The position numbers were made by a program, and so were the translations under genes. Below, one piece after another: positions 38,169 through 60,271 of a stretch of DNA of 64,000 bases. Every line of letters begins with the position of its first letter. Position 1 is the first letter of the stretch. The stretch comes from Candidatus Woesearchaeota archaeon (GTDB taxonomy: Archaea > Nanobdellota > Nanobdellia > Woesearchaeales > UBA10216), in contig JACPTE010000024.1 of assembly GCA_016192945.1 (NCBI GenBank), positions 16,001-80,000 on the forward strand, given 5' to 3'. Below the pieces are notes generated by a model that was not told the origin of the DNA, made no database searches, and worked only from the letters and a program-made list of their open reading frames with translations.

Positions 38169-39837
38169 TGTGCCTCAAATACTCGCGGAATACATCAACA
38201 GCAGAGGGAGAAAGCTTTCCTTCAGCAAGAAATTCTCTTACTTCACCGATGCCCATAAACCTTCCCTCAGCGACTTCAGAACTGTCAAGGGTGATTGGGC
38301 CGTTGTAAACGCACTTGAAGACAGACCTGTGTACATTGTTCTCTTTTCTGTTTGACCTCAGCTTGAACATAAGGGAAAGCTTTGCTCCAGTAATTCCCGC
38401 CTCCTCAAAGAGCTCCCTCTTTGCAGCCTCCTCGTAACTCTCGCCAGACCTTACTGAACCGCCGAATTTGACATCCCACAATCCGGGATAAAGCTTTAGG
38501 TGGGTGGCTCTCATGTGGACAAAAAGCTCTGCTTTTGAATTGAACACCATTGTGTTTGAAGTGCGGTGAAGGAGGCTGTTTTCCATTATTTCCTTCCACG
38601 GAACACTTCGTATCACTGCATCTGACTCGTCAACAATGTCAATAAATTCCTCATGCGAATCCCTGAATTTAAGGAGATTGGTAAGCAAGTCAGGGCGATT
38701 GCTGGATATGATGTCTGGCCCAAGCCCGATCATTGAATTGATATCCTCCTCTGTATCAGGATTCCAGACTCCAACTTTAAGCCCGTTTTTCCTGCAGTCG
38801 CTCATTATCTTCCTGTTTATGAATTTAAAATTGTGAAGAAGGATGCTTGCCCCGGCATCCTTTGCCAGCTCAATATTATTCTCTGTTTTAACGCATATGA
38901 GGCCTGTTTCAAGATTGCTTATGCTCCTGGCCTTTCTTAGCCTTTCATGGTTAAACGAAATTACGACAACAGTTTTCTCTGCCTTTCCTCGTTTCACAGC
39001 ATCAACAACCTGCTCCTCAAGAGAATCATCCTTCAGCTCAACATGAAGGATAACTTTGCCTTTTATCACAGATATCACTTCATCAAGAGTGGGTATCTTT
39101 TCGCCTTTTCCTGCATCCAGCTTCCTAAGCTCAGCCAACGTAAAGTCTGACACCTTTCCCCTGCCGTTGGTAGTTCTGTCCAGTGTAACGTCATGAATGA
39201 CCGCAGCCTTGCCATCCTTTGTAATCCTCACGTCTATCTCCACCATATCTACGCCAAGCTCAATGCCCTTCCTGATTGCCCTAATTGTGTTCTCAGGCTC
39301 CAAGATTCCGGCTCCCCTGTGGCCTGTCACTTTTATCTTCTTAAGTTCAAGATATCCTTTGAATGTGACTTCTGCCCCGGGACTTAATTTCCCCCTGTCA
39401 AGATATTCTTTCATCTCTCCTTCAGCCAAAAACCTGATTTCGTCTATTTCTTCATCCTGCTTTCTTATATGGCCATCGTAAACTATCCTGTAAACCTGAT
39501 AGTTGGCATTGGCTTTTTGTGAACGGAGCTTTGCATTGAAAATGCATTCAAGCTCTTTTGCTTCAATCCCCAGCTCTTCCTTTAGCTCCCTGATTGCTGT
39601 CTCTTCGTAAGACTCCCCTGTTTCCAGAGTGCCCGCTATTCCGATATCCCACATTCCAGGGTAAACATCCTTCTTCATTGACCTTTTCTGGGCAAGGAGC
39701 TTTCCTTCAGAATTGAGAACAATAACCCTTGCAACCCTGTTAAGAAGCGCTCCTTTCCTTACCTCTGCTCTTGTAGCCTGCCCGATGACCTCACCAGCTT
39801 CATTTATCAAATCGATAATTTCTCCCATTTTATTCAC
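38155..39837 (-). CDS. Tri-domain fusion: Nudix hydrolase - glycerophosphodiester phosphodiesterase (GDPD) - Nudix hydrolase
   Basis: Nudix boxes GESYEETAIRELKEELGI and GESYEEAAKRELFEEAGI. Central HRGAG...ENT...EIDVRITKDG...HD..LDRTTNG GDPD motifs. Confidence 0.8.
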   Translation of the reverse strand: MNKMGEIIDLINEAGEVIGQATRAEVRKGALLNRVARVIVLNSEGKLLAQKRSMKKDVYPGMWDIGIAGTLETGESYEETAIRELKEELGIEAKELECIFNAKLRSQKANANYQVYRIVYDGHIRKQDEEIDEIRFLAEGEMKEYLDRGKLSPGAEVTFKGYLELKKIKVTGHRGAGILEPENTIRAIRKGIELGVDMVEIDVRITKDGKAAVIHDVTLDRTTNGRGKVSDFTLAELRKLDAGKGEKIPTLDEVISVIKGKVILHVELKDDSLEEQVVDAVKRGKAEKTVVVISFNHERLRKARSISNLETGLICVKTENNIELAKDAGASILLHNFKFINRKIMSDCRKNGLKVGVWNPDTEEDINSMIGLGPDIISSNRPDLLTNLLKFRDSHEEFIDIVDESDAVIRSVPWKEIMENSLLHRTSNTMVFNSKAELFVHMRATHLKLYPGLWDVKFGGSVRSGESYEEAAKRELFEEAGITGAKLSLMFKLRSNRKENNVHRSVFKCVYNGPITLDSSEVAEGRFMGIGEVREFLAEGKLSPSAVDVFREYLRHNGKN

Positions 39838-40339
39838 TCTTCTCAGTATATTTGTTGAATATCATGGCTCCGTCCAAGGCAAAAACGCCATTTGAAATAA
39901 GTTCTGTTACTTCAGAAGTGCTTGCGTGCCTTACTTCATCCACTTCACCCGTATGTAGCTCTATTTTTCCATTATAGACCAGCTTGAATACCCTTGTGTT
40001 CGTATTGTATGAATCAGACCTGTATTTGACATCAAACAGGTGTCTCAGCTCATTTACTGTATAACCATCTATGCCAAGCTCCTCTTTCAAGCCCCGTAAC
40101 GCAGCAGCTTCATAAGGCTCACTTCTCAATACAGTTTCAGACATGCCCAAATCCCAGCAGCCAGGGAATATATCCTTTGAGTCAGGTCTTTTCTGGACAA
40201 TGAACCTGCCAAAATAATCCACAATTATCACATATACTGTCCTGTGTATCAATGCTTTTTCATCAACATCTTTTCTTGTTGCCTTGCCAACTATTGCGTC
40301 TTCATCATTCACTATATCAATCATTTCTTCAGGAGTCAT
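39830..40339 (-). CDS. Nudix hydrolase (stand-alone, paralogous to the fused Nudix domains)
   Basis: Nudix box SEPYEAAALRGLKEELGI. 169 aa. Confidence 0.8.
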   Translation of the reverse strand: MTPEEMIDIVNDEDAIVGKATRKDVDEKALIHRTVYVIIVDYFGRFIVQKRPDSKDIFPGCWDLGMSETVLRSEPYEAAALRGLKEELGIDGYTVNELRHLFDVKYRSDSYNTNTRVFKLVYNGKIELHTGEVDEVRHASTSEVTELISNGVFALDGAMIFNKYTEKSE

Positions 40340-41118
40340 TTTTTTCTAACTGCTGCTATCAGGTAGTGTCTTTTAACAATGAATTTAGGATGCATTTCAA
40401 AAGTCCTTTTCAGAGCAGCAGCCAATATGCTGTATCTTTTTTTGAATGGGATTTCCAATATCTTTTCACTTCTCCAGGGTATTTTATAATAGTCCATGAG
40501 GAATTTCAGATTATTTTTTCCCAGGGGAAGAATGCTCCAGCGCAAAACCCTGAATTTGCCCTTTCGCAGGGCTTCCTTAAATGCCTTATTCCTGGAATTA
40601 GGGTAATCCAGATAAGCCTTCTTACCAATATCCCTTTTTTCCAACTCAACCTTAATATTTCTTTCAAGTTCCTTTTTGAACTCATTGCTTGCCTTGTCTA
40701 TGCCAATTGTTATTCCAGTCCTGTACAAAGGTACGGCAAAAATCAAAAGGCCTTTTGGCTTCAGAATCTTGCTAATTGATGAGATGGCCTTATTTATTCT
40801 TGTAAACTGCAGCACAAGGCTTGCAAATACAACATCAACAGGCTCTTTTATCATAGAAATCTTCTCAGCAGGCAGCTTTCGGATAGTGATGTTTTGCTTG
40901 CGGAATTTCATTCTGCAATATGCAACCATATCGGTGCTTTTGTCAATAGCTATTATTTTTCCTTTCTTTCCAACCTGCTTGTGCAGCAGGTTCAGGTAAA
41001 TTCCGGTCCCGCAACCCATGTCAACTACTGTATCGCCTTTTTTTATGCGATTTTTTATTTCTGATACCATGGGCTTTAGCATGAAAGCATGCTTTTTGTA
41101 CAGCTGCGATATTCTCAT
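40336..41118 (-). CDS. Class I SAM-dependent methyltransferase
   Basis: Motif I VVDMGCGTG. Rossmann-like order of motifs. Confidence 0.8.
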   Translation of the reverse strand: MRISQLYKKHAFMLKPMVSEIKNRIKKGDTVVDMGCGTGIYLNLLHKQVGKKGKIIAIDKSTDMVAYCRMKFRKQNITIRKLPAEKISMIKEPVDVVFASLVLQFTRINKAISSISKILKPKGLLIFAVPLYRTGITIGIDKASNEFKKELERNIKVELEKRDIGKKAYLDYPNSRNKAFKEALRKGKFRVLRWSILPLGKNNLKFLMDYYKIPWRSEKILEIPFKKRYSILAAALKRTFEMHPKFIVKRHYLIAAVRKK

Positions 41119-42182
41119 TTCATCATCCCCAAAAACTCATCAAACAAAAATCCAGCGTCAACAGGGCCTGGAGTTGCCTCCGGGTGAAATTGGACGCTGA
41201 AGAAAGGCTTGTTCCTGTGCCTTAGCCCCTCGTTAGTGCCGTCATTGGCATTAATGAATGATTCCTCCCATCCTGATGGCATTTTCTTCATGTTGACTGC
41301 AAACCCGTGATTCTGGGAAGTTATATAGCATCTTTTTGTCTGGATATTGCTGCATGGCTGGTTCTGGCCCCTGTGGCCATATTTCAGCTTGTACGTATCT
41401 CCGCCTGCTGCCAAGGCCAGAATCTGGTTGCCCAGGCATATCCCGAATATTGGCATTTCCAGCTTCATCGCTGAGGCAACATTCCTTATCGTTTCCCTGC
41501 ACATCTTCGGGTCCCCAGGGCCGTTGCTTATTACCATGCCATCAAAAGTTTCCCTCGTGAAGTCATAATCCCATGGAACCCTTATTACTGTGCAGTTTCT
41601 TTCAGCGAGGTTCCTGATTATGCTGTTTTTCACTCCGCAATCAACCAGCAGTATCTTCCTGCTGCCTTTTTCGTTGTAGACAATTTTCTTTTTGACAGAA
41701 ACTTCAGCAACAAGATTGCGCTTGTTTGGGTCGTCAATAGGAGCGTCTTTGTTGCTTACGGTTAATTTTCCGAGCATTACCCCCTTTTCCCTTAGCTTCT
41801 TTGTCAAGGCTCTGGTGTCAACGCCATGAATGGCAGGTATATTGTGCTCCTTCAGCCACTCTGAAAGGCTTTTGGCAGCTTTCCAGTGGCTGTAATCAGG
41901 GGAGTAATCAGCAATTATAAGGCCGCTTGCCTGGATTTTATCTGACTCAAAATGCCTTGATAGCCCAAAAGAATCCCTCTCGTCAGCAGGAACCCCGTAA
42001 TTCCCAATAAGCGGGTAAGTTAGAACAAGAATCTGCCCCTTATAGCTGGGGTCGGTCAGGCTTTCAGGATAGCCAACCATTCCTGTGTTGAACACGACCT
42101 CGCCAGAAACAGATGTGCCTGCACCGAAAGAAACGCCATTAAAACGAGTTTTGTCTTCAAGCTCAATATAGCCAGTCATCAA
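41115..42182 (-). CDS. carA: Carbamoyl-phosphate synthase small (glutaminase) subunit
   Basis: Class I GATase with GICLGNQ. CarA N-terminal domain. Confidence 0.93.
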   Translation of the reverse strand: MMTGYIELEDKTRFNGVSFGAGTSVSGEVVFNTGMVGYPESLTDPSYKGQILVLTYPLIGNYGVPADERDSFGLSRHFESDKIQASGLIIADYSPDYSHWKAAKSLSEWLKEHNIPAIHGVDTRALTKKLREKGVMLGKLTVSNKDAPIDDPNKRNLVAEVSVKKKIVYNEKGSRKILLVDCGVKNSIIRNLAERNCTVIRVPWDYDFTRETFDGMVISNGPGDPKMCRETIRNVASAMKLEMPIFGICLGNQILALAAGGDTYKLKYGHRGQNQPCSNIQTKRCYITSQNHGFAVNMKKMPSGWEESFINANDGTNEGLRHRNKPFFSVQFHPEATPGPVDAGFLFDEFLGMMK

Positions 42183-42789: not shown

Positions 42790-43683
42790 AAGCGCCATTC
42801 TTACTGGTATGCCGTTGTGAGCCTGCTGGAAGTATATGCTTTGCCTTGCCTCGTCCAGCCCGGGGTTTATCTCATCCACTCTTGGAAGCGGGTGTAGTAT
42901 TTTCATTTCAGGCTTTGCATGCCTCAGGAATGATGTATCAAGCTTGTAGAATCCCTTTACCTTTGCATAGTCCTCTGAGTTGAGGAATCTTTCCTTTTGG
43001 ATTCTGGTTACATAAAGTATGTCCAGTTCCCTGCTTACCTTCGTCAGCTCTTCCTCCTCAACATAGCTTATTCCAGAGGATTCCATCTCCTTGATGTATT
43101 TCTCAGGCAATTTGAGGGATGGGGGTGATATGAAGTAGAACTTCGGGCTGAAATGGGAGAGTGCGTGCGTGAGGCTGTGGACTGTTCTTCCGAATTTCAG
43201 GTCTCCCAGGAATCCTATGTTGAGCCCCTGCAGGGTGCCTTTTGTCTGCATTATCGTGAACAGGTCAACAAATGTCTGGGTAGGGTGCTCGTTTGTGCCG
43301 TCACCTGCGTTTATTATGGGGTTTGATGCTGCTTCGGCAGCTTTACTGACAGAGCCTGCTTCAGGATGCCTCATCACAATAACATCACAGTATCCATCAA
43401 CAATCCTTATTGTGTCGTGTGTTGTCTCCCCCTTTGAAATGGATGTATTGTCAGGCTCTGAAAATCCTATCACAGAGCCTCCAAGCCTGTGCATTGCAGC
43501 CTCAAAGCTCAGTCTTGTCCTGGTTGATGGCTCAAAGAATAGTGATGCCATTATCCTGCCTTTCAGAAGCCCTGAGTATTTGCTTCTGTCAGCCTGTATT
43601 TTGGCTGCAACATCAATTATGTGCAATAGTTCCTGCTTGGAGAAGTCCCTTATTGATATTATATCCCTGTTTTGGAAGCCCAT
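42763..43683 (-). CDS. pyrB: Aspartate carbamoyltransferase catalytic subunit
   Basis: STRTR and HPLP motifs. No pyrI follows. Confidence 0.93.
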   Translation of the reverse strand: MGFQNRDIISIRDFSKQELLHIIDVAAKIQADRSKYSGLLKGRIMASLFFEPSTRTRLSFEAAMHRLGGSVIGFSEPDNTSISKGETTHDTIRIVDGYCDVIVMRHPEAGSVSKAAEAASNPIINAGDGTNEHPTQTFVDLFTIMQTKGTLQGLNIGFLGDLKFGRTVHSLTHALSHFSPKFYFISPPSLKLPEKYIKEMESSGISYVEEEELTKVSRELDILYVTRIQKERFLNSEDYAKVKGFYKLDTSFLRHAKPEMKILHPLPRVDEINPGLDEARQSIYFQQAHNGIPVRMALLGLIIGGL

Positions 43684-43768
43684 TAAAAAAACAAGAGTAT
43701 CAAGCTTAGTTTATAAAGTTTATTTATTTTTTGTGGTGTTTGAAAAATCTGCCTATAATTTTATAAAC

Positions 43769-46768
43769 ATGAGCACCCAGTTAACGCTGATGGTCGGCAG
43801 CAGGCTTCACAATTTGTTTTTCATTGTTTGTGTCTCAATAATTGGCTTTCTGATGTTTTTTTTCATAAAGGTTTCATTCACAGGGTATGGTGTCTATGAG
43901 GAAAACCTGAAGACGTGGGATTTCAGCCAGCCAGCAGATTACTCATTTGATGCCTTATTGATAAATTTCAGCAGCGGGGTGAGGCTGCAGTCTGTCACGA
44001 TTATGACCCCTGCAACAGGCGTAACTACAAACAGGACTTCAGTCACAGCTGCCTACAAGATTGATGATGACAATGAAAGCGAGCTGGTAACTGGCAAGGT
44101 AACGGCTCTTGATGATTTATATGTCAACAATGGGAAAGATGACCTGCTTAATGTCTCTTTTGGCAGCCTGCTCAATAATGGAGACAATCTGTCGTTCTAT
44201 ATTGACCCCTCAAAGGCAGGCAAGATTCGGATTTGCCTGTCTGGAAGCTGCGCCTCCCCTGGATACGGCGAGGCCTCATTCAGCAAGTCAACTGGCTGGG
44301 TTTCAATAAGGCTTTCCAGCCTTCCTTCAGGCTCAAGCTCGTTCTTGATTGACACTGATTCAAGTGTCAAGTTTGATTATATCTATTCAAACTACACAGA
44401 CAGCTACAATTATTCTGTTCCAGGCAGTTCGTACACTGGCAGTGGAGAGATTGAGACAGCTGACTTTTCGCCATCAGGGGTTTCAATGTGGAATGTCTTC
44501 AATGCCTATGGAACCATGAACCAGCAAACATTGGCTTACAGCTACTCAACTGACTCAGGCGTGTCCTGGGTTTCAATAAGCAATGGCTCCAACATGTCAC
44601 TGCCTGCTTCGTCAGGGAAAATCAGGCTTAAGGCAGCACTCTCCAGCGATGGGACGTCAACGCCTGTGTTAAGCTCCATGAGCATATCATACTCCAGGCT
44701 GTTGTGCAGCGAGGATTGGAGGGCTGTTTATGGCACCTGCCTTGTGAATGACTCAAGATTGAAGACGTACAGTGATGCTAATAATTGCAGGACTTCCGAT
44801 GGCCTGCCTTCTGACAACAGTACTTATGTGCAGTGCGACTACTGCACGCCATCATGGGCTGAGCTGAACAGGAGCTGCCTTGTCAATGATACGCTTTTTT
44901 CATATTTCAGCGACACAAACAGCTGCTTTCCATTTACAGGGCTGGCTTCAGACAATAACCCCCCGGCAAACAAGAGTTATGCCTGCGATTATTGCACCCC
45001 GCATATAGCTTTCTTCAACACATCATGCCGGGCTGACGATACTCTGGTCATGTATGCGAACGACAGCAATGGATGTTATTCATTTACAGGGATTGCATCT
45101 GATAATGTGCCTGGCAATGTGACTTTAGGATGCGACTACTGCACGCCATCATGGGCATGCAGCAGCTATTCTTCATGCAGCATTGCTGGAAGGAGGGCAT
45201 GCACTGGTGCGGTGGATGTAAAGTCGTGCTATCAGCTTACAGGGCTTTTGGCAGATTCCTATCAGGGTAACTATTCTGAGTTTGACTCGCAGTGCTTTAA
45301 TGAAGCTGCATCTTTCATGGTTGCAGGGTTTGACATCGCCCCAAGAAGCGCTGAATCCGGGAAAAACATAACAGTGGTTGTCAAAATTTCGGACATGCCC
45401 AAGGTTAGCTCTGCATTTTTGGAAGCCTATGGCTCTGGGCGCATGAAAGCCCTTTCTGTCCAGGGAATGGCTGGCAACAGCACATTCAGGTTCATAATCC
45501 CGACCAGTTCCCTCAATAAGGGCATTTACACTATGAGAGTTAATGCATCAGACTATTACAACAACTCTGCATTGTTTGATATTGATGCCTTTGCAGTTTC
45601 AGGCTCATTAAGTTCTCTCATGAAGAGCGCTGTTGAAGGGAAGAATTTAATTTCAAACGACGCTGAAAGAAAGGTGAGCACGTCAATAAATTTCAGCAAA
45701 AGCGTGAATGGCACTGTTTTTGTAGCGACCTATAATGAAAGCACGAAGAACGAAACGCCTGCCTCCAAAAAGCAGCTCCATAAGTATGTTGAGATAATTC
45801 CTGACGAGTCAATAAGGCCCAGCATATTGGCGGTAACAATAAGGATAAACTACTCTGATGATGAGCTGTCTGTCTGGAATATTGATGCCAGCAGCCTGGC
45901 AATATACTATTACAATGAGTCCTCTTCAGTTTGGGAAAGGCAGGAATCATCTGTCAACTTGACAGGCCATTATGTAGAGGCAGTTGTAGCCCACGCAAGC
46001 CTCTTTGGGGTTTTTGGTGACCCTGCAAATGCGCCTATCGCAAGCGCTCCAAATGGTGATGGCAGCAGCGGCTCAGATGGAGGGGGCGCTGATGGATGCC
46101 AATCTATCCAAGAATGCCCTGGCTCTTCAGGTTCAGGGCCTGTGGCTAATGAAACCAACCAAAGCATAGGAAGCAGGAAGGGAGAAACTGAAAAGCTCAT
46201 TCCTGACTCTCAAAGAATCCTGGCCATTTCAGGCAACACCACTGCAAGAGCCAATGCCTCAGGATTGGCTGGAAAGGGAGCTGGCTGCGATTACAGCATG
46301 GTTATTGACCTCCCTTCAAATATTTCAATGGTAAGGGAAAATTACTTTATTGGAAGGTTCTCAAGCTCAGGCCAGTGCAGCATTGATGAGGTTGAGATGG
46401 TGCTCAAGGGGCCTGTAACTGATATTGTGTCAATAAATTACAGTACGGGCTCTTCAGGCTTCTTGAGGCTGAATTCAAAGCAGGCAAACGCCAATGCTCT
46501 CAGGGGGCTGCCTGTTGGCCTGATTGTCAACTCACGGGATATCCCGAAGAGGACTTATACAGGCAGCTTAATAGTCAGGGGAATTGTCAACAGGAGTGTT
46601 GTGTCTGAAGAATCCCTGCCCTTGTCTGTTGAGATCGGCGAATCCAGGGCTGGCAGCTCATTTGAAGTCCCGCCTGCTGCATGGATTGTTGCAGCAGGAT
46701 GCATAGTCAGCATCATAAGCCTGCTGCTCCTTCGGAGAATTGCCAAAAGGAAAAAGAAAGGAAGATAG
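43769..46768 (+). CDS. Large (~1000 aa) cysteine-rich-repeat cell-surface protein with N-terminal signal/anchor and C-terminal TM anchor plus basic tail
   Basis: Upstream part of the 1199 aa ORF overlaps pyrB antisense. Start at MSTQLT after the divergent promoter. Four ~45 aa repeats containing CDYCTP(S/H)WA...SC...DDTL..Y.D.N.C..FTG.ASDN. Many N-x-S/T sequons. C-terminus AAWIVAAGCIVSIISLLLLRRIAKRKKKGR. Confidence 0.8.
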   Translation: MSTQLTLMVGSRLHNLFFIVCVSIIGFLMFFFIKVSFTGYGVYEENLKTWDFSQPADYSFDALLINFSSGVRLQSVTIMTPATGVTTNRTSVTAAYKIDDDNESELVTGKVTALDDLYVNNGKDDLLNVSFGSLLNNGDNLSFYIDPSKAGKIRICLSGSCASPGYGEASFSKSTGWVSIRLSSLPSGSSSFLIDTDSSVKFDYIYSNYTDSYNYSVPGSSYTGSGEIETADFSPSGVSMWNVFNAYGTMNQQTLAYSYSTDSGVSWVSISNGSNMSLPASSGKIRLKAALSSDGTSTPVLSSMSISYSRLLCSEDWRAVYGTCLVNDSRLKTYSDANNCRTSDGLPSDNSTYVQCDYCTPSWAELNRSCLVNDTLFSYFSDTNSCFPFTGLASDNNPPANKSYACDYCTPHIAFFNTSCRADDTLVMYANDSNGCYSFTGIASDNVPGNVTLGCDYCTPSWACSSYSSCSIAGRRACTGAVDVKSCYQLTGLLADSYQGNYSEFDSQCFNEAASFMVAGFDIAPRSAESGKNITVVVKISDMPKVSSAFLEAYGSGRMKALSVQGMAGNSTFRFIIPTSSLNKGIYTMRVNASDYYNNSALFDIDAFAVSGSLSSLMKSAVEGKNLISNDAERKVSTSINFSKSVNGTVFVATYNESTKNETPASKKQLHKYVEIIPDESIRPSILAVTIRINYSDDELSVWNIDASSLAIYYYNESSSVWERQESSVNLTGHYVEAVVAHASLFGVFGDPANAPIASAPNGDGSSGSDGGGADGCQSIQECPGSSGSGPVANETNQSIGSRKGETEKLIPDSQRILAISGNTTARANASGLAGKGAGCDYSMVIDLPSNISMVRENYFIGRFSSSGQCSIDEVEMVLKGPVTDIVSINYSTGSSGFLRLNSKQANANALRGLPVGLIVNSRDIPKRTYTGSLIVRGIVNRSVVSEESLPLSVEIGESRAGSSFEVPPAAWIVAAGCIVSIISLLLLRRIAKRKKKGR

Positions 46769-47968
46769 TCAATCCTGCTTTTTTTTATTGATGCCTGATG
46801 CTACTTCCTGGTACGCCTCCCTGAACGGCATTCCCTGCTTTACCAGCTTTGCAGCCTCCTCAGCGGTATAAAGCTCAGAAGTCATAGCTTCCCTGCATCT
46901 TTTCTCATTTACTTTCAAGCCATTGATTATCTGTGCCATTATATCTGCTGATGACCCTGCCATCTCTATGCCATTGAACAAAGGCTCTTTCGTGAGCTTA
47001 AAGTCTCCATTATAGCCTGAAGGGAGATTAAGGATAATGTTGTTTACAGCATCGCAATAGCTCTTCATCATGCCTGCCTTAGCCCGCGCAATTTCAAGCA
47101 CGTCAGGGTTTGCCTTATGGGGCATTATGGAGCTGCCCATTGAGAATTCCTTCGGAAGCTCAAAGTAGCCGAATTCAGATGACGTGAAAAGCCATAAGTC
47201 TGTTGACAGCTTGTTTATGTCAAGCATAAGATTGTTCAGGGAATTTAATACCATGAGCTCAAACTTACCGCGGCTGTTCTGGACGTAAAGCGTGTTGTTC
47301 TGGACCTTGTCAAAGCCGAGAAGCTTTTGGGTCAGGTTCCTGTCAATGTTTAGGACCGGCACGCCATATCCCGCAGCGCTGCCCAATGGATTCTGGTTTA
47401 TCAGCTTCTTTGATGAATTTATCAGAGCAAGGTCATCCCGGAATGATTCTGAAAAAGCCTCTGCCCATTTTCCAACAGCATAGGGCATCGCCTTGCGGAG
47501 GTGGGTGTATCCTGGAATTGGAATTTTGCTGTTCTTGCTGCTGAACTTGTTTAGCTCTTCAATCAATCTGCTGACAGCAGAAATAATTTCCTCAAGCTCG
47601 TGCCTTTCGTAAAGCCTCAAAGCAACAATTATCTGGTCGTTCCTTGAGCGGCCTGTGTGGATTTTCTTGCCTAGCTTCCCTAGCTTTTTTGTAAGATGGT
47701 TTTCAATAGCAGTATGGCAGTCCTCCTGCTCTACAGTGATTTTAAACTCGCCTTTGCTGTCCAGGAGCATTATCTCCTCAAGCCCCGCAATCAGCTGTGA
47801 CAATTCAGTTTTATTCAGTATGCCTGCCTTGTGCAGTGCTTTGGCATGGGCAATGCTTGCAATGCAGTCATATTTGACCAGCTTCTGGTCTATTATGTTC
47901 TCGTTGCCAACTGTGAACTTCTCTATTGCCTTGTCAATGTTGAAATCTTTCTTTTGCCAGAGCTTCAT
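46769..47968 (-). CDS. argH: Argininosuccinate lyase
   Basis: Fumarate-lyase signature GSSIMPHKANPD. Confidence 0.92.
   Translation of the reverse strand: MKLWQKKDFNIDKAIEKFTVGNENIIDQKLVKYDCIASIAHAKALHKAGILNKTELSQLIAGLEEIMLLDSKGEFKITVEQEDCHTAIENHLTKKLGKLGKKIHTGRSRNDQIIVALRLYERHELEEIISAVSRLIEELNKFSSKNSKIPIPGYTHLRKAMPYAVGKWAEAFSESFRDDLALINSSKKLINQNPLGSAAGYGVPVLNIDRNLTQKLLGFDKVQNNTLYVQNSRGKFELMVLNSLNNLMLDINKLSTDLWLFTSSEFGYFELPKEFSMGSSIMPHKANPDVLEIARAKAGMMKSYCDAVNNIILNLPSGYNGDFKLTKEPLFNGIEMAGSSADIMAQIINGLKVNEKRCREAMTSELYTAEEAAKLVKQGMPFREAYQEVASGINKKKQD
46779..46788 (+). terminator. Oligo-T tract immediately after the surface-protein stop codon
   Basis: gcttttttttatt read directly, in the convergent gap before argH. 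Confidence 0.45.
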
Positions 47969-47991
47969 CTTGCCTCATTTTTATGGTTGTA

Positions 47992-49263
47992 TTAATAATA
48001 CTTCTTAATTTTATCAGATTTAGTTTTTACCTGATTGGCGAGCTTCATCTGGAAGCTCCACAGCTCAATGAATCCTGCACTCGCATTCTGGTTGAAAGAG
48101 TAGTCTTTCATGAATGTAACAAGGTTCTTGTCATAAAGCGCATTTTCAGAGTAAATAGCAACAGCTTCTGCCTTGCCCTTGTAAAGCTTTACAGTGACTG
48201 AGCCATTAACCTTTTCATTCAGCTTATTGCAGAAAATGTTTAGTTCATCTATCAACGGCTCAAGCCAGAATCCCCCATAGCAAAGATATGCCCATTTAGT
48301 GTCCACAATGCTCTTGAACTCGTTCTCCTGCCTTGTGCAGACATATTTCTCAATTACCTTGTGCGCCTCCAATATGATGGCTGCTGCCGGCATTTCGTAA
48401 ATGTCACGGTTCTTAAGACCAACAACCCTGTCTTCAATATGATAGCTTATCCCAATGCCGTGCTTTGCTCCTATCTTTGCCAATAACAGGATAATATCAG
48501 AAAGCTTCATTATTTTCCCTTCAACAGCAACAGGAAGTCCTTTCTCAAAATCAATCTTTATTAATTCGGGCTTGTCTGGAGCATTCTCAGGGGTGTTGCA
48601 TACAGCGAGTATTTTTTCAGCAGGAGGGATAAGACTGGGATCCTCAATTTCACCTGATTCTGCACTTGAGCCCCACATATTGTCATCATAGCTGTAAGGC
48701 TTGTCCTTGGTTGCTTTTACGGGAATGTTATTTTTCTTGGCATATTCAATCTCCTCATCCCTTCCCATGCTCCATTCACGGACTGGAGCGATGACTTTTA
48801 TCTTTGGACTGATGGTTATGGCAGTTGCTTCAATCCTCACCTGGTCATTTCCTTTTCCTGTGCATCCGTGTGCAATCGCATCTGCGCCTTCCTTTTCAGC
48901 TATTTCAACAGCAATCTTTGCAAGCAATGGCCTGCCCATTGCAGTTGCAAGATGATAAGCGCCCTGATATGAGGCATTGGCTTTTATGCCCTTTGCAACA
49001 TAATTATTAGCAAACTCGTCCTTGGCATCGACTACAAAAGCCTTTTTTGCACCAAGCTTTAATGCCTTTTTCCGGATTTCCTCCAAATCGTCACTATGCT
49101 GCCCAAGATCAACTGTGAGCGCAATTACCTCTGCATTATATTCCTCCTGAATCCACTTAAGCATTACAGAAGTGTCCAATCCGCCTGAATAAAGCAAAAC
49201 TACTTTCTTGACCTGTCCTTTTTCAGCTTCATAGCTTGCAACTTTGGAATATTCTTTTTTCAT
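47992..49263 (-). CDS. argG: Argininosuccinate synthase
   Basis: LLYSGGLDTSV PP-loop. ArgG length. Confidence 0.93.
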   Translation of the reverse strand: MKKEYSKVASYEAEKGQVKKVVLLYSGGLDTSVMLKWIQEEYNAEVIALTVDLGQHSDDLEEIRKKALKLGAKKAFVVDAKDEFANNYVAKGIKANASYQGAYHLATAMGRPLLAKIAVEIAEKEGADAIAHGCTGKGNDQVRIEATAITISPKIKVIAPVREWSMGRDEEIEYAKKNNIPVKATKDKPYSYDDNMWGSSAESGEIEDPSLIPPAEKILAVCNTPENAPDKPELIKIDFEKGLPVAVEGKIMKLSDIILLLAKIGAKHGIGISYHIEDRVVGLKNRDIYEMPAAAIILEAHKVIEKYVCTRQENEFKSIVDTKWAYLCYGGFWLEPLIDELNIFCNKLNEKVNGSVTVKLYKGKAEAVAIYSENALYDKNLVTFMKDYSFNQNASAGFIELWSFQMKLANQVKTKSDKIKKYY

Positions 49264-49274
49264 TTTTCCTCCAC

Positions 49275-49826
49275 TTATTTGAGCGTCATTATCATGGGTA
49301 TCTCATCACACAGTCCGTATTCCATGAGCCTACAGTCAGCGCAATCCTGCTGGTATTTTGAAGCAGGGAAATTTTGTGCTGTAACAAAGCCCCATCTTTC
49401 AAAAATAGGAACATTTTCTCTTTTCGTCAAGGTAAGCATCTGGGAGTGCCCCCTTGCCAAGGCCTCTTCTGCAACTGCCCTGACAAGCAATCCGCCAATG
49501 CCTCTTTTCTGGTATTGCCCATCAACAGCAAGAGTCCTCATTTCCGCAATATCTGCATATTCAACCAATGAATTGCATCCTATTATCCTGGGATTAGCAG
49601 CTACATAAAAGCCGTTCTGTAAAGTAACCTCGATCACCCTTTGCTCAGTTATTGGAAGTAGCATTCCTTTTGCCTCCAAAAAGCCGTTTGAAGCTATTGA
49701 AAACTTGTACTTGTCTGCCCAAGCCTTGATTTGAGGAGCATCAGCTAAGATAGCCTGCCTTACAATGCATGCAGCTGAAAAATCCGTTCCTCCACCGACT
49801 AATGCAAGGTCTTCTATCGTTGCCAT
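49275..49826 (-). CDS. GNAT-family N-acetyltransferase (candidate short N-acetylglutamate synthase or regulator) with C-terminal Cys motif
   Basis: Motif A TLAVDGQYQKRGIGGLLV. C-terminal CADCRLMEYGLCDE. The annotated long ORF's N-terminus (MSYLRQLCLICPVLVN) is really the translated conserved operator DNA. Confidence 0.7.
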   Translation of the reverse strand: MATIEDLALVGGGTDFSAACIVRQAILADAPQIKAWADKYKFSIASNGFLEAKGMLLPITEQRVIEVTLQNGFYVAANPRIIGCNSLVEYADIAEMRTLAVDGQYQKRGIGGLLVRAVAEEALARGHSQMLTLTKRENVPIFERWGFVTAQNFPASKYQQDCADCRLMEYGLCDEIPMIMTLK

Positions 49827-49846
49827 GTTTTCGGGAATCATCAATT

Positions 49847-49908
49847 GATTTATAAGCCTATTGACCAAAACAGGACAAATAAGACATAGTTGTCTTAAAT
49901 AGGACATC
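49847..49908 (-). promoter_or_regulatory. Arg-cluster promoter 1: TATA (cttataaatc) plus conserved upstream ~50-bp element
   Basis: Element ggtcaatagg...gtcctgttttggtc with GACA/TGTC half-sites. Same element at 51543-51605 and 55775-55832, each abutting a TATA box. Confidence 0.55.
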
Positions 49909-50157
49909 TACTTATTTGTCTAGTTTTAGTGAAATAGTATGTAGATATCCACAACATTGTTAATCTGCCTTAAATTAATTCCCTGAAGCACGAATCTGTA
50001 AAGGTTTTCAACAGAAGACCTGTGCTCTTTCGGCTTCGCTCCAAAAGCAGAATAGGCTTTTCTCCACGAATTTATTTTCGGGTGTTCTGATATGAGGGGA
50101 TTATTATGGGTTTCCCTGGCTTTTTTCTGTTCTGTTAACAGCTCTTGATAAATTTCT

Positions 50158-51042
50158 TCATTTTTCCTCCAGCAATTTCAGCATTATAGCCTTCTGCACA
50201 TGAAGCCTGTTCTCAGCCTGCTCAAAAACAATCGAGTTCTGGCTGTCTATCACTTCATCAGTTATCTCGAAGCCCCTATGGGCGGGGAGACAATGCATTA
50301 TCAAGGCATTCTCCGGAACAAGCCCCCTGTTCAGCTGATAAGGAGAAAAAACATTGTGCCTTTTCTCAGCTTCCTTTTCCTGGCCAAGAGAAACCCAGGT
50401 GTCTGTATAAACAATATCTGCCCCTTCAACAGCTTCCTTTGGATTGTTTGTGAAACTCAGAAGGCCTGTTTTTTTTGCAGATTCCATTATTCCCATATTT
50501 GGCTCATAGCCCTTTGGCGTTGCAACAGCAATCCTTATGCCTGTTTTTGTGCAGGCAGCGATAAGCGAATTGCAGACATTGTTGCCATCTCCGATAAATG
50601 CCAGCTTTGATTTGAGGCCTTTCTTTTCCTTGATAGTCATTACATCAGCCAATGCCTGGCATGGGTGCTCAAAGTCAGAAAGCCCGTTTATAACAGGAAC
50701 ACCTGCAACCTTGGCCATCTTTTCTACATCGCTATGTGAATAGACACGAACCATTATTATATCTGCATATCCTCCTATGCATTTTACCTCATCAAAAATA
50801 TTGCCAACTGCAAAGTTGCTGTCCTTCCAGTCAAGGAATGCGGCATGACCTCCAAGTTGTGTCATCCCAATTTCAAATGAAATCCTTGTCCTTGTTGAGG
50901 TTTTCTGGAAAATCATCACAAGGCTTTTGCCTTTCAAGGCTCCAGAATAATTCTCAGGACTCTTTTTGAGCTTTTCAGCTAATGAAATGATTTCATTTAC
51001 CTCTTTATTATCCAAATCCTTGATTGCAAGCAGATGATTCAT
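50158..51042 (-). CDS. argF: Ornithine carbamoyltransferase
   Basis: STRTR carbamoyl-phosphate motif and HCLPAHRG. Confidence 0.92.
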   Translation of the reverse strand: MNHLLAIKDLDNKEVNEIISLAEKLKKSPENYSGALKGKSLVMIFQKTSTRTRISFEIGMTQLGGHAAFLDWKDSNFAVGNIFDEVKCIGGYADIIMVRVYSHSDVEKMAKVAGVPVINGLSDFEHPCQALADVMTIKEKKGLKSKLAFIGDGNNVCNSLIAACTKTGIRIAVATPKGYEPNMGIMESAKKTGLLSFTNNPKEAVEGADIVYTDTWVSLGQEKEAEKRHNVFSPYQLNRGLVPENALIMHCLPAHRGFEITDEVIDSQNSIVFEQAENRLHVQKAIMLKLLEEK

Positions 51043-51051
51043 TTTTCCTGT

Positions 51052-51531
51052 TCAATTGTTTTCAATACTGCAAGATATTAGTTCAGTTTTACAGTTTGGA
51101 TAGCGCGAGCATTTAATGTCATGTGCAAGCATCATTACGTTTTCGGGTATGCTTTCCCTGTCAACAACCTCAAGCTTCAACTTCTTGAAAAACCCTGGCT
51201 TTTCAGTGAATGCTATAAGTTTCTGTACTCCCATTTCCTTTGCTTCCTGCATTGCCATCTCTACCAGCCTTGTCCCTATGCCTTTACCCTGATGCTTCTC
51301 TTTCACCGCCAGACTCCTGAGTTCAGCATAGCCATCCAGAACTATATGCAGGGCTATGCATCCCACAATTTCTCTCCCTATCTTGGCTATGAAGTATTCC
51401 CTTATGCTGCTATACACTTCGCTGAAAGGCTTTGGGGAAACTCCCTTGCCTGTAAAGCTGTTTATAAGGAAATTTATCTCCCCTGCATTGGATAGCTTCG
51501 CTTTTCCAAAAGTCACTTCAGGATTTTCCAT
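51052..51531 (-). CDS. GNAT-family N-acetyltransferase (short NAGS-like)
   Basis: Motif A YAELRSLAVKEKHQGKGIGTRLVEMA. Start MENPEV about 27 nt after the TATA. Paralog of 56538-56999. Confidence 0.72.
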   Translation of the reverse strand: MENPEVTFGKAKLSNAGEINFLINSFTGKGVSPKPFSEVYSSIREYFIAKIGREIVGCIALHIVLDGYAELRSLAVKEKHQGKGIGTRLVEMAMQEAKEMGVQKLIAFTEKPGFFKKLKLEVVDRESIPENVMMLAHDIKCSRYPNCKTELISCSIENN

Positions 51532-51542
51532 GGAAGGTAGTA

Positions 51543-51605
51543 AAGTTAGCTTTCTTATAAGGTTATTGACCAAAACCAGACTAATTAGACATAAATGTCC
51601 TAAAT
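51543..51605 (-). promoter_or_regulatory. Arg-cluster promoter 2: TATA (cttataag) plus conserved upstream element
   Basis: ttattgaccaaaaccagactaattagacataaatgtcctaaataagacaaaacc. Contains the GACATAAATGTC palindrome. Confidence 0.55.
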
Positions 51606-51634
51606 AAGACAAAACCTATTCTCCCTTCTTTGCT

Positions 51635-54881: not shown

Positions 54882-54903
54882 GTTTCACCGTAAAATTCTA
54901 ATA

Positions 54904-55734: not shown

Positions 55735-55774
55735 TGTCAAGCTGGTTGTTGATTGAAGTATTATTCTGACATCG

Positions 55775-55832
55775 CTTATAATCCTATTGACCAAAACAGG
55801 ACAAAATAAACAAAAATGTCCAAAACAAAACA
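55775..55832 (-). promoter_or_regulatory. Arg-cluster promoter 3: TATA (cttataat) plus conserved upstream element, shared divergent region with the regulator gene
   Basis: cctattgaccaaaacaggacaaaataaacaaaaatgtccaaaacaaaaca. Confidence 0.55.
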
Positions 55833-55835
55833 TTT

Positions 55836-57648: not shown

Positions 57649-57740
57649 TTTAATCAGCTCAACTCTAACCTCTCTATATATCTGGCGGCAATTTCTTGTA
57701 CCAAAACACTTTTATTTCAGGAATCCTGCCCAAAATTCAT

Positions 57741-57827
57741 ACGGTAGTGGTCTAACGGCATGACAGGAGCTTCCCAAGGCTAAGCTGGAGTCAGCTTCTA
57801 GTCCGGGTTCAATTCCCGGCTACCGTA
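57741..57827 (+). tRNA. tRNA-Gly: tRNA-Gly (anticodon CCC) with a ~16-nt canonical intron between positions 37/38
   Basis: Hand-folded:
- acceptor ACGGTAG/CTACCGT with discriminator A
- U8, D-arm GTCT-AACGGCA-TGAC
- anticodon stem GGAGC/GCTTC, loop TTCCCAA (U33, CCC, A37)
- intron about 57777-57792
- T-arm CCGGG-TTCAATT-CCCGG (G53-C61, A58)
- C2-G71/G3-C70 Gly identity pairs
- TATA-like tttatttcag about 25 nt upstream
- CCA not encoded. Confidence 0.65.
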
Positions 57828-57829
57828 TT

Positions 57830-60271
57830 TCACTCCTGCTTCAGGATGCCCCTGAGTATTGACATGATTTCTGGGTGCTTCTCAGGATTCAGCATATCTA
57901 CATGAAGCAAGACAGGCTGCAGGCTCGCAGAGCAGTTTCCCCTGGCATAGTAATTATTGGCGCCATCAATGTATGCACTTCTTGCTGTTATGATGCCGTC
58001 ACCATCCTCCCCCTCTGTGTTGCATCCAGTCCCAATTATGTTGTAAACAGGAATGCCTTGAGGCTGGTTTTGCGGGTCGTTGAGCTTCCTGAGGAAGAAT
58101 GAGCCTGAAGACATGTCCTCGCACTCTTTTTCTTCACCCAGGAAAGAGCAGATTTTTGTTGATGTCTTGTTTATCCCGCTGTTTGGTGTGCCTATCATTA
58201 TGAGCTTTGAAACTGATTCGTCACCAAAAATCTGCATGTAGCTCCTTGCTACAAGCCCGCCCATGGAATGCGCAACTATTATCACCTTGTCCTTCCCGGT
58301 TCTCTGCTTAACTATGTCCACCAGTTCCTTGAGCCTTACAGCGTAAACAGTGATTTCATGGCTGCTCCTCTGGACAAGCAGGTATCCTCCCCTCTGGTCG
58401 CTTATTATGTCATAATAATAAGCCACGCTGACGCTTACCGGCTTTCCTGACAGCCCCCAGTCACCAGGCTTGATAGTATCGCTGGAGTTGGGGTATAATA
58501 TGCCTGCATTCAAGTATCCTTCTGACTGCAAGGCCCTCTGAAGGGGGCCAAATGCCTCTGCAGTGAATTCTGGAACACTGCCCCTGCCGATTGAATGGCC
58601 GTGGACTAAAATTATCGGGTAGGTTTTAGGGTCATTCCTGCACTCAGGGCCTGTGCAGCAGGACCTGCATTCCCCCAGAACGCAGCATTCTGGAAAAGGC
58701 TCCCCAAGGCTCTGGTTGATTTTTATGATGTCTGAATGGATTTCAGGCATTATTGCTTGAGAAATATTCGCCCTGGCCAGGGTTAATGAAATGTTCGGGT
58801 ATCTTATGCAGTGAAGCCTGTAAAACTCTGTGGTGTCATTGCTTTCTGTGAGATTGAGGGAAAACCTGAGTGTGGTGTTTTCTGTCAAAGCGCCGCCTGA
58901 TGATAGGTTGCTTTCAAGTTCTCTGAGCTGGAAAAGGAAGGATGACTGGTTCATCATGCTGGAAATATTCAGCTTGTCAAGCATATAGGAGTATGCCCTG
59001 GGGCCGTTGAGTGACCGATTAGATTCGCCGAGAAGCTGTTCTGCATAGTAATATGAGGCGTTTTCAAGTTCACCGCTTACCCCATTGAGCATGGTGCAGT
59101 AGCCTGACCTTATTGAATTTATTTCAGATATTCTTCCCTGTCCCTTGAAGGAGTAATTCACTGTCTTGCAATACCCTTTCAGCAAGCAGGCCTTTTTCAG
59201 TTCATTTTCAGCAATTCTGGTTGCCTTTTCTGATATGTTGCCCAAATGTCCTGCTGCTTTTTTCTCAGATAAATCCAGCCCAAAATTGGCAGCCTCCAGC
59301 ATCGCCTTTATCTCAGACACGTTTTCATAATCAAGCAGTAAAAGCCTGGTTACAGTGTCATTGAAATCTTTGCTTTCAGAAATGATTTCCTGCTGCAGGG
59401 CCGTGTCATTTGCTTCAGCAGCAATTGATATGCTCGGGCCAAGCTCTCCCTTATCAGAATATGTCCTGTTCAGCTCCAGCACTATGCTGTTGTAGGATGA
59501 AATGTCTTCATTCAGTGAGCTGTTAATTTTCTCAATGAGCTTGTAAGAAACCTCTGTCCTGTTTTGGAACCTGTTGTTCAGAAGGGCGTATTCCTGCTCA
59601 TTCCAGAGCGTCCTGAATGTTTCCGACTCAAGAATCACTGATTGAATCTCATCATTAAGCTGCGCCCTCATGGCAGACAGGTCCTTCAGGCTCATCTTGC
59701 TTTCAAGCTGGTTAATCTGGCTGTCCAATAAATCGGCTTCTCCATAGAAAGAGCTCAGTTCGCCAATATGCGCTGTAAGGTTGCTGTGGAGGGTTTCCTT
59801 CAGTTTAAGCTCTGCCTCTGTGTAGTCATAGTTGAATGTTATTAGCGAGGCATATGATTTCCATTCATATCCTGAAAGGCATCCAATGGACTGGATATTC
59901 CTGCAGGTTGCATCAAAATTATACAGGAACTGGCCTCTGCCCCTCCTTGTGAGCTTCAGGCTATAGTTCCTTTCAAACGACTCCCATGGCCTTATGCTAA
60001 AGCTTCCGCTATCAATCCCAATCCCGCTGCTTTGGTCGCTGAAACTGTATTCGCAGCTGACAGTGCAAAAGATTCCTGTATTTGGCCTGATGCTGAACCT
60101 TACAACCGAAACATTCCCATAATTCCCATGAAGTGAAGTGTTGCTTGTAGAGAGGTATACTGTAAGGTCGTTTTTTACATAATTTACCAGGAATATTGCA
60201 GCGATAACTATAATGAAGGCAATGGCCAGCAGGGAGATTATTATTACCCTCTTTGCCTTTGAATGCAGCAT
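57830..60271 (-). CDS. Membrane-anchored extracellular protein: N-terminal TM, long coiled-coil/N-glycosylation-rich region, Cys-rich linker, C-terminal PGAP1-like alpha/beta-hydrolase (lipase/esterase) domain
   Basis: N-terminal VIIISLLAIAFIIVIAAIFLV. GxSxG nucleophile elbow IIVAHSMGGLVARSY with upstream LVHGHS. CCVLGECRSCCTGPECR. Many N-x-S/T sequons. Confidence 0.8.
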   Translation of the reverse strand: MLHSKAKRVIIISLLAIAFIIVIAAIFLVNYVKNDLTVYLSTSNTSLHGNYGNVSVVRFSIRPNTGIFCTVSCEYSFSDQSSGIGIDSGSFSIRPWESFERNYSLKLTRRGRGQFLYNFDATCRNIQSIGCLSGYEWKSYASLITFNYDYTEAELKLKETLHSNLTAHIGELSSFYGEADLLDSQINQLESKMSLKDLSAMRAQLNDEIQSVILESETFRTLWNEQEYALLNNRFQNRTEVSYKLIEKINSSLNEDISSYNSIVLELNRTYSDKGELGPSISIAAEANDTALQQEIISESKDFNDTVTRLLLLDYENVSEIKAMLEAANFGLDLSEKKAAGHLGNISEKATRIAENELKKACLLKGYCKTVNYSFKGQGRISEINSIRSGYCTMLNGVSGELENASYYYAEQLLGESNRSLNGPRAYSYMLDKLNISSMMNQSSFLFQLRELESNLSSGGALTENTTLRFSLNLTESNDTTEFYRLHCIRYPNISLTLARANISQAIMPEIHSDIIKINQSLGEPFPECCVLGECRSCCTGPECRNDPKTYPIILVHGHSIGRGSVPEFTAEAFGPLQRALQSEGYLNAGILYPNSSDTIKPGDWGLSGKPVSVSVAYYYDIISDQRGGYLLVQRSSHEITVYAVRLKELVDIVKQRTGKDKVIIVAHSMGGLVARSYMQIFGDESVSKLIMIGTPNSGINKTSTKICSFLGEEKECEDMSSGSFFLRKLNDPQNQPQGIPVYNIIGTGCNTEGEDGDGIITARSAYIDGANNYYARGNCSASLQPVLLHVDMLNPEKHPEIMSILRGILKQE

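Follow-up and report, generated by a model that had tools for sequence, protein, structure and literature searches.

Thrombospondin type 1 repeats (TSRs; Pfam TSP_1, PF00090, and TSP1_CFP_C, PF22195) are extracellular tandem modules of ~50-60 amino acids (aa). Disulfides staple their three antiparallel strands, they are glycosylated and used in adhesive multi-domain surface proteins, and they are regarded as animal-type domains (PMC3417536). Giardia's variant-specific surface proteins (VSPs) combine a type-I, CxxC-rich ectodomain with a short basic tail, and the Giardia coat is described as resistant to proteases, pH and heat (PMC6341118). Archaeal S-layer and surface glycoproteins such as csg of Haloferax volcanii (PDB 7ptp) are type-I proteins with strings of immunoglobulin (Ig)-like domains, many N-glycosylation sequons and a C-terminal anchor with a basic tail. 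Sushi or complement control protein modules are extracellular beta modules of ~60 aa with four cysteines, arranged as beads with very short linkers. In this study we analysed a stretch of 64,000 nucleotides from a Candidatus Woesearchaeota archaeon (GenBank assembly GCA_016192945.1, contig JACPTE010000024.1, positions 16,001 to 80,000 of the forward strand; the window in what follows), in which a gene on the plus strand encodes a 999-aa protein that shares features with each of these systems. A sequence-only reading of the window had described it as a large surface protein built on a novel-looking cysteine repeat. We find that the protein carries an array of four such modules, and we hold with moderate confidence that it is a type-I surface glycoprotein whose head would stand on a stiff, disulfide-stapled and glycan-covered stalk, acting as a coat protein or adhesin.

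The window modules differ from TSRs in having a single Trp each, replaced by His-Ile in module 3, in lacking a conserved Arg and the Trp/Arg ladder of the TSR kind, and in having four rather than six Cys in modules 1-3 and an extra short helix, and they carry N-sequons instead of the C-mannosylation or O-fucosylation motifs of TSRs. Sushi modules place their conserved Trp elsewhere and space their Cys differently. Giardia VSPs are unrelated in sequence; in the window protein CxxC is only a junction and the Cys-rich part makes up 20% of the chain, not all of it, and there is no evidence of antigenic switching. Unlike archaeal S-layer and PGF-CTERM proteins, the window protein has no PGF motif, archaeosortase signal or S-layer family match, and those proteins have no counterpart of its Cys-rich array.

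The cysteine-rich repeat and its family

By its sequence the module defines a domain family that is new but familiar in kind, being a small Cys-rich repeat, predicted to be extracellular, of a modular surface protein. Searches of Pfam (2025), NCBIfam (2026) and PDB sequences gave no meaningful match to the whole protein, the array, a consensus triple repeat, the alignment profiles A1, A3 and A7 or relatives with 9-15 repeats. No Pfam match to TSP_1, CARDB, PKD, Sushi or EGF was obtained on the array even at E <= 10, and none to TSP_1 on the whole protein at E <= 1, so that the sequence-only reading, which could place the repeat in no named domain and had given thrombospondin-type and CARDB-like domains as examples of matches that would speak against it, is borne out. 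The only matches of the array are those of its 11-residue CxxCTP junction to Fer2_2 and PyrI_C, both sub-threshold. CARDB and PKD matches in three relatives (P0129, P0103 and P0088, all of the WSxW subtype described below and not of the window's) fall outside the repeats, and in the repeat-rich P0068 the CARDB match is non-significant (E 0.38). Nor did we find a description of the repeat in the literature on Cys-rich, disulfide and S-layer proteins of Woesearchaeota and DPANN archaea and on prokaryotic TSP1. Hypothetical proteins such as MBI3051043.1, MAG08564.1 and MFA5175941.1 (from Woesearchaeota, Nanoarchaeia and Micrarchaeota) belong to the same repeat family and are all uncharacterised and unnamed, and an exact-sequence look-up found no identical entry on record for the 999-aa protein.

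The anatomy of the repeat differs in part from what had been read initially, which was at least four tandem units of ~45 aa, each with a CxYCTP core and three to four further cysteines. Four modules are indeed present, but the CDYCTP core occurs in three copies only (aa 356, 406 and 455, 50 and 49 aa apart); the first copy, from aa 313, lacks the first Cys and begins LLCSEDW. The copies recur with periods of 50, 49 and 55 aa (147-153 nt in the DNA), the module length is ~47-52 aa, and the units in correct phase hold 4, 4, 4 and 6 Cys. Alignment with 19 orthologous arrays (A4), together with a family-wide count, sets this phase and gives four complete units joined by D-Y dipeptides. Across the family a lone Cys opens the first module in 120 of 171 arrays and closes 127 of 177, and CxxC is found in 339 of 341 internal modules. 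These lone cysteines at the array ends indicate that the true unit is C(TPxW)...C...C...C and that CDYC is the junction of two modules.

The consensus of the internal form, taken from 57 sequences (A3), reads CDYCTPxWxxxNxSCxxxDTxxxxYxDxNxCxxxTGLxSDNxxPANxT, with columns C1, C4, C15, C31, T35 and D40 invariant and P6, L37, P44 and N46 nearly so. The window protein has all that defines the family: tandem consensus units, D-Y junctions and a secreted-type protein around them. Its module 1 follows the pattern C-x-E-x-W...NDS...YxDxNxC...LPSDN...C, module 3 has His-Ile in place of Ser-Trp, and module 4 ends ...GNYSEFDSQC. A hidden Markov model (HMM) built from the four copies matches this gene only in a six-frame translation of the window. 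At the DNA level a perfect 26-nt direct repeat, TGCGACTACTGCACGCCATCATGGGC, which encodes CDYCTPSWA, lies at 44834-44859 and 45131-45156, where the CDYCTP copies of aa 356 and 455 begin, the modules being otherwise diverged; gene conversion may have left it behind, or it may serve as a slippage substrate when the copy number changes.

A word-indexed protein search returned 65 homologues, and the four-copy HMM matches all 65. The closest one (P0001) is 99% identical and lies on a 4.3-kb contig (L019, run SRR12113420); the others are 27-46% identical, and P0002-P0042, within this range, share the whole-protein architecture of the window protein. When profiles were searched exhaustively against 1.84 billion cluster representatives, only 342 proteins were found at E <= 1e-3, 167 of them at E <= 1e-10, with at most 28 matched stretches per protein. 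A few weak members of the 342 are unrelated repeats, for example P0134 and P0170 (both E < 1e-13, with many partial matches). Every homologue that carries a source name comes from Candidatus Woesearchaeota, Nanoarchaeia/Nanoarchaeota or Micrarchaeota, where it is entered as a hypothetical protein or peptidase, or from marine metagenomes; judged by these labels the family is restricted in lineage. An apparent occurrence on viral contigs was discarded: the degenerate CDYCTPxW DNA pattern gave two matches, neither of which contains the repeat according to the HMM, and we attribute them to chance.

The repeat is present in 190 of 192 fetched proteins. A hydrophobic N-terminus is found in 144 of the 176 repeat proteins that start with Met, and 95 of the 192 end in a transmembrane helix with a basic tail. 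About 57 of the 192 have the same N-terminal head and C-terminal domains (local jackhmmer), and other proteins pair the module with S8 or C1 peptidase, CARDB, DUF11, LamG, BNR, RCC1 propeller, NosD/beta-helix, GH113 or PKD domains. Whole-protein orthologues carry 0-6 modules between conserved flanking domains, some giant proteins carry 17-28, and seven loci (L010-L016) match the head and the later domains and are repeat-free. By its sequence contexts the repeat is a mobile extracellular module, and its variable copy number and its attachment to many unrelated enzymes are as would be expected of a stalk or spacer. The initial view of a large surface protein built on the repeat therefore holds for the large, membrane-anchored extracellular candidate, but the repeats account for only 197 of 999 aa (~20%) and some orthologues do without them.

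Four subtypes can be told apart: the internal 4-Cys form, a 6-Cys form with 'CC...DC', an array-terminal 6-Cys form, to which module 4 of the window belongs, and a 57-aa form with 'WSxW...QxR'. Profile comparison with hhalign aligns the 6-Cys form (A6) to the 4-Cys form (A3) with a probability of 98.7% and the WSxW form (A7) to A3 with 95%, which indicates that the subtypes are one family.

Predicted architecture, disulfides and glycans

The open reading frame (ORF) at 43769..46768 (+) is uninterrupted, with 999 codons and a TAG stop, as had been assumed at the outset. Its product can be read as a type-I, transmembrane-anchored surface-protein candidate with 26 Cys, of which 24 belong to the ectodomain and two to the hydrophobic helices at the termini. 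The signal or anchor helix, the Gly/Ser/Asp linker and the C-terminal transmembrane helix with its basic tail are all as the sequence-only reading described them (Table 1). An AlphaFold model of the full-length protein, made with 41 homologues, has a mean predicted local distance difference test (pLDDT) of 77.6. Foldseek searches of the PDB with this model returned generic multi-Ig matches only (surface proteins, S-layer proteins and adhesins) at a TM score of ~0.1. The array modelled alone from 20 aligned arrays reached a mean pLDDT of 92.2. Each module is predicted to have a strand A that holds the Trp, a longer strand B running to Y-x-D, a short helix that follows the third Cys and a short strand C before the closing Cys; in module 2 these are strands 363-367, 375-382 and 402-405 and helix 386-390.

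Table 1. Coordinates of the features of the surface-protein gene and its flanks (window positions; Cys numbering by residue)
Feature	Residues (aa)	Position	Strand	Details
Intergenic spacer between pyrB and the surface-protein gene, divergent		43684..43768	.	85 bp, AT-rich, read directly
Two palindromic TATA-like boxes		43710-43717, 43760-43767		TTTATAAA; in 85-bp spacer, read directly
N-terminal hydrophobic segment, putative signal peptide or signal anchor	16-33	43814..43867	+	LFFIVCVSIIGFLMFFFI; AlphaFold helix 9-32
All-beta head	~40-312	43886..44704	+	pLDDT ~90, all strands
Cys module 1, array-initial form	313-356	44705..44836	+	Cys 313, 324, 340, 356; HMM 54 bits
Cys module 2, internal 4-Cys	359-406	44843..44986	+	Cys 359, 370, 386, 406; HMM 68 bits
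Cys module 3, internal 4-Cys	409-455	44993..45133	+	Cys 409, 420, 436, 455; HMM 63 bits
Cys module 4, array-terminal 6-Cys	458-509	45140..45295	+	Cys 458, 464, 470, 478, 487, 509; HMM 46 bits
Ig-like beta-sandwich	517-611	45317..45601	+	pLDDT 85-95
Second beta-sandwich	616-750	45614..46018	+	ends ...HASLFGVFG; pLDDT >90
Disordered Gly/Ser/Asp-rich linker	757-838	46037..46282	+	pLDDT 28-40 (<50); C777/C783 pair
Membrane-proximal beta domain	~840-957	46286..46639	+	pLDDT ~90
C-terminal transmembrane helix and basic tail RRIAKRKKKGR	970-988 and 989-999	46676..46765	+	AlphaFold helix 969-998
T8 run, possible archaeal oligo-T terminator		46779-46786	+	11 nt past stop; putative function

The N-terminal hydrophobic segment is followed in orthologues by a conserved (K)PSxTG[FY]xVYE motif, and the head carries a conserved C156/C161 pair and an invariant YSYSTDSGxSW motif. 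Two contigs of Thermoplasmata metagenome-assembled genomes (MAGs; L017 and L018) match only aa 222-311 of the head, around YSYSTDSGxSW, and have no Cys repeats; these matches suggest that all or part of the head is a module in its own right, with a wider distribution. Weak matches to Big_7, PKD or NPCBM_assoc occur in a few orthologues and may fall in the sandwich at aa 517-611. TIGR04213 (PGF_pre_PGF) is matched weakly by 2 of 41 orthologues, with E values down to 1.9e-5; from the sequence pattern of that domain we tentatively place this match in the sandwich at aa 616-750. The stretch GDGSSGSDGGGADGC (aa 763-777) lies within the segment predicted to be disordered, and the Cys columns of the C840/C870 pair in the membrane-proximal domain are conserved in the orthologue alignments A1 and A2.

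Processing by an archaeosortase of the PGF-CTERM type, which the sequence-only reading had raised as something to look for, is not supported by the orthologues or the 64-kb window. Comparison of the orthologues revealed no PGF or other sortase-type or conserved motif before the transmembrane helix, where the window protein reads ...SSFEVPPAAW, and NCBIfam gave no PGF-CTERM match. An archaeosortase-like ORF is likewise absent from the 64-kb window, which is weak evidence; the sole polytopic membrane ORFs there, of 152 and 204 aa, do not match. Long charged cytoplasmic tails follow the helix in several orthologues, and together with the missing motif they argue for an anchor that is a plain bitopic transmembrane helix.

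The protein is very probably N-glycosylated. What had been noted as dozens of sequons amounts to 36 N-x-S/T sites, compared with 13.5 +/- 3.2 in sequences shuffled at constant composition, and a count of 36 was reached in 0 of 5000 shuffles. The density of 3.6 per 100 aa is ~6-fold that of the 50-odd other ORFs of the window (0.56). Family-wide, sequons are denser inside the repeats (4.7 per 100 aa) than outside them in the same proteins (2.6), and HMM columns 12 and 45 each carry one in 48% of 431 repeats.

The window contains a second probable secreted glycoprotein of 813 aa at 57830..60271 (-), with an N-terminal transmembrane segment and 3.2 sequons per 100 aa. It contains a cluster of Cys, CCVLGECRSCCTGPEC, and has an alpha/beta-hydrolase domain (lipase-, PGAP1- or PhaZ7-like) at its C-terminus; the CDYCTP repeat is absent from it.

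Possible functions of the stalk and the whole protein

How might such a protein work? From the outside inwards the predicted order would be head, four Cys modules, two beta-sandwiches, flexible linker, membrane-proximal beta domain, transmembrane helix and basic tail. Each module of ~47-52 aa would fold into three strands and a short helix, held by two disulfides, or three in the case of the terminal module, and bearing two to three sequons, and neighbouring modules would be joined by nothing but D-Y, C-D-Y-C then being neither a redox nor a metal motif. We propose that the array forms a stiff, protease-resistant, glycan-coated stalk or spacer that keeps the head off the membrane, with a length tuned by module copy number, and that the whole protein serves as an envelope coat protein or as an adhesin that contacts hosts or substrates.

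Several points weigh against this view. Woesearchaeota are mostly anaerobes, and the formation of extracellular disulfides there is unproven. Glycosylation, disulfides, abundance and localisation are predicted properties, and the predicted TM score of the array is 0.52, so that its rigidity and the orientation of the modules are not established by the model. The head has no match in Pfam, NCBIfam or PDB sequences that would reveal its fold or ligand, and the conserved D27, N29, T35 and D40 of the repeat could signal binding of a ligand or of Ca2+ and not a passive spacer. The apparent restriction to DPANN archaea rests on MAG labels, and four loci come from third-party annotation (TPA) bins labelled Methanosarcinales.

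The alternatives differ in which part of the protein they explain otherwise. According to one, the repeat cysteines bind Zn or an Fe-S cluster through CxxC, in the manner of a zinc ribbon, a [2Fe-2S] Fer2_2 domain or Giardia VSPs, and the modules are redox or metal modules. Every junction is indeed C-x-x-C, an anaerobic lifestyle disfavours disulfides, and Fer2_2 gives short matches on C-x-Y-C-T-P. These matches span only 11-24 of 75 profile positions, however; in the window protein the match covers aa 352-362 (11 of 75 positions, 17.5 bits compared with a gathering cutoff of 30.3), and P0103 and P0188 show junction matches of the same kind. In multi-repeat proteins they can add up to more than the cutoff, as in P0129 with 38.4 bits, and such summed junction matches are a likely source of false '2Fe-2S' annotations. 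Furthermore, arrays begin and end with a lone Cys, so the CxxC pair is split between two modules, and extra cysteines are gained in pairs: 78 repeats have Cys at both columns 32 and 41 and none at just one of them, and a Cys in columns 9-14 is accompanied by one in columns 16-30 in 82 repeats and stands alone in 3. This pairwise gain, the even number of ectodomain cysteines and the splitting of CxxC speak for disulfides and against CxxC metal or redox sites, as does an extracellular, sequon-rich location. On this phase and pairing evidence we reject metal binding as very improbable and argue that the modules are probably disulfide-bonded, which had also been considered possible in the sequence-only reading. 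The whole protein, on the other hand, might be the main lattice-forming S-layer glycoprotein of its Woesearchaeota clade, since it has ~1000 aa, is rich in sequons and is of type I with a C-terminal anchor. Many Woesearchaeota MAGs contain it at 27-46% identity, each genome in our scan having one locus, and its monocistronic gene stands alone amid housekeeping genes, as does that of P0003. One of its best Foldseek matches is the S-layer structure 7ptp of Haloferax (probability 0.90), and in one metatranscriptome S-layer genes rank with the most highly expressed genes of Woesearchaeota (PMC11606122). Against this, neither the protein nor its orthologues match the S-layer family models of Pfam or NCBIfam, the structural matches are to generic Ig strings as noted above, and its expression and lattice formation are putative. 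Cys-rich modules are unusual in known S-layer proteins. Comparison with the strain of contig L019 over window positions 42815-47079 revealed 13 differences in 4265 nt, two of them in argH and 11 in the surface-protein gene, with none in the adjacent 950 nt of pyrB and spacer; the 9 non-synonymous and 2 synonymous changes in the gene (pN/pS ~1.3) are unlike strong structural constraint and hint at relaxed or diversifying selection, although the counts are tiny and too small to rely on. We therefore consider a lattice-forming S-layer protein rather unlikely.

A further possibility concerns the modules themselves, which might be TSR-like adhesive, ligand-binding elements for glycans or proteins of host cells, and perhaps distant homologues of TSRs. 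A Foldseek search of the PDB with the array gave nothing at E <= 1e-3, and in BFVD a single unnamed match, C7U0R1 (E 2e-4), which is not interpretable. The best-ranked PDB folds were nevertheless properdin (1w0r, E 0.1) and the TSR arrays of thrombospondin-1 (7yyk, 3r6b and 1lsl, E 0.2-0.6); among the top 38 such arrays hold ranks 1, 3, 5 and 38, with TM scores <0.3 and probabilities up to 0.54, all non-significant. The sister subtype A7 carries W-S-x-W...C...Q-x-R like the TSR Trp/Arg ladder and aligns over it to human TSRs (pairwise E 0.0065, probability 5.9%), and P0129, with 15 WSxW-type repeats, comes near the threshold for Pfam TSP1_CFP_C (25.2 bits compared with a cutoff of 27). The invariance of T35 and D40 and the near-invariance of P6, L37, P44 and N46, none of them Cys, suggest more than a scaffold, and DPANN archaea are episymbionts that need adhesins (PMC11329633). 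All of these TSR signals, however, stay below significance, the WxxW/RxR-like motif is present only in the A7 subtype of other proteins, and the window modules lack the ladder and two of the six cysteines. Alignment of A3 and A6 to human thrombospondin-1 TSRs by hhalign gave probabilities of 0.1-0.2%. A module that is joined to many unrelated enzymes and missing from some orthologues is, moreover, spacer-like. The resemblance is thus a consistent but sub-threshold lead that does not establish membership, and we regard TSR-like binding elements as unlikely. More doubtful still would be the wider idea that the modules are an archaeal counterpart of TSRs, by homology or convergence, for contact of DPANN archaea with their hosts, the length of the stalk setting the intercellular distance. 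For the stalk-bearing surface glycoprotein that we favour, the AlphaFold prediction, a check that the initial reading had suggested for one repeat, provides a concrete structural model with high confidence for the array and three strands and a short helix per module.

Gene context and significance

The surface-protein gene stands alone on the plus strand between pyrB (aspartate carbamoyltransferase) and argH (Lyase_1), both on the minus strand like all other nearby genes; this arrangement had been recognised correctly, and two TATA-like boxes in the spacer are in keeping with the divergent promoter that had been proposed for the gene. Box 1 lies ~27 nt from the pyrB ATG (43683) and box 2 ~26 nt from the in-frame ATG at 43790 (Met8), spacings that would fit leaderless archaeal transcripts and a start at Met8. 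The other possible starts are the ATG at 43769 and a GTG at 43733, which is used in the database copy P0001; a longer frame from 43169 runs over pyrB and was rejected as a gene. A scan for sigma-70 promoters and intrinsic terminators is uninformative for an archaeon. The clean oligo-T terminator of the sequence-only reading exists as a T8 run, but it overlaps the coding sequence of convergent argH, where it is the antisense of C-terminal Lys codons (KKK); the stop codons of the two genes abut at 46768/46769. The high expression of which the sequence-only reading took this arrangement to be typical is not supported. Homologous loci do not share pyrB or argH as neighbours. The P0003 gene is also a lone one, on the strand opposite to its immediate neighbours and among housekeeping genes.

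Some observations on the rest of the window may be added. The argH gene is short (399 aa), with a Lyase_1 match only and no match to a C-terminal argininosuccinate lyase (ASL) domain. Biosynthesis genes are unusually many for a DPANN archaeon (34980-42182 and 46769-55833), comprising carA, carB, pyrB, argB, argG, argH, purL, guaA and sufBD. ArgG, encoded at 47992..49263 (-), is closest to ArgG of Woesearchaeota, with 77-80% identity, which makes the window Woesearchaeota-like. It is also ~70% identical to hundreds of ArgG proteins of the Candidate Phyla Radiation (CPR)/Patescibacteria (Roizmanbacteria, Microgenomates, Daviesbacteria), many with an extra MGS domain, which suggests an inter-domain transfer in which arginine genes passed between this DPANN clade and bacteria of the CPR. 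ARAGORN reports one tRNA-like gene of 89 nt at 57740..57828 (+) whose anticodon is undetermined ('cc') and which may be an archaeal tRNA with an intron.

In conclusion, we characterized an extracellular-type repeat whose practical impact is moderate, as new surface repeats are common in uncultivated microbes and the role of the module is an inferred one. A large part of archaeal diversity belongs to the DPANN archaea; they live attached to other cells, with surface proteins that are almost wholly unannotated. A compact extracellular family with a confident model, four subtypes, ~300 representative proteins and an HMM could be used to annotate secreted and surface proteins in these archaea, with the caution that its CxxCTP junction may be labelled automatically, and wrongly, as [2Fe-2S]-binding. 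Should the weak resemblance to TSRs be genuine, it would matter for the question of how an adhesion module regarded as animal-type arose. The covariation of cysteines and the conserved sequons, finally, lead to predictions on N-glycans and extracellular disulfides that can be tested directly, for a lineage that is anaerobic and uncultivated.

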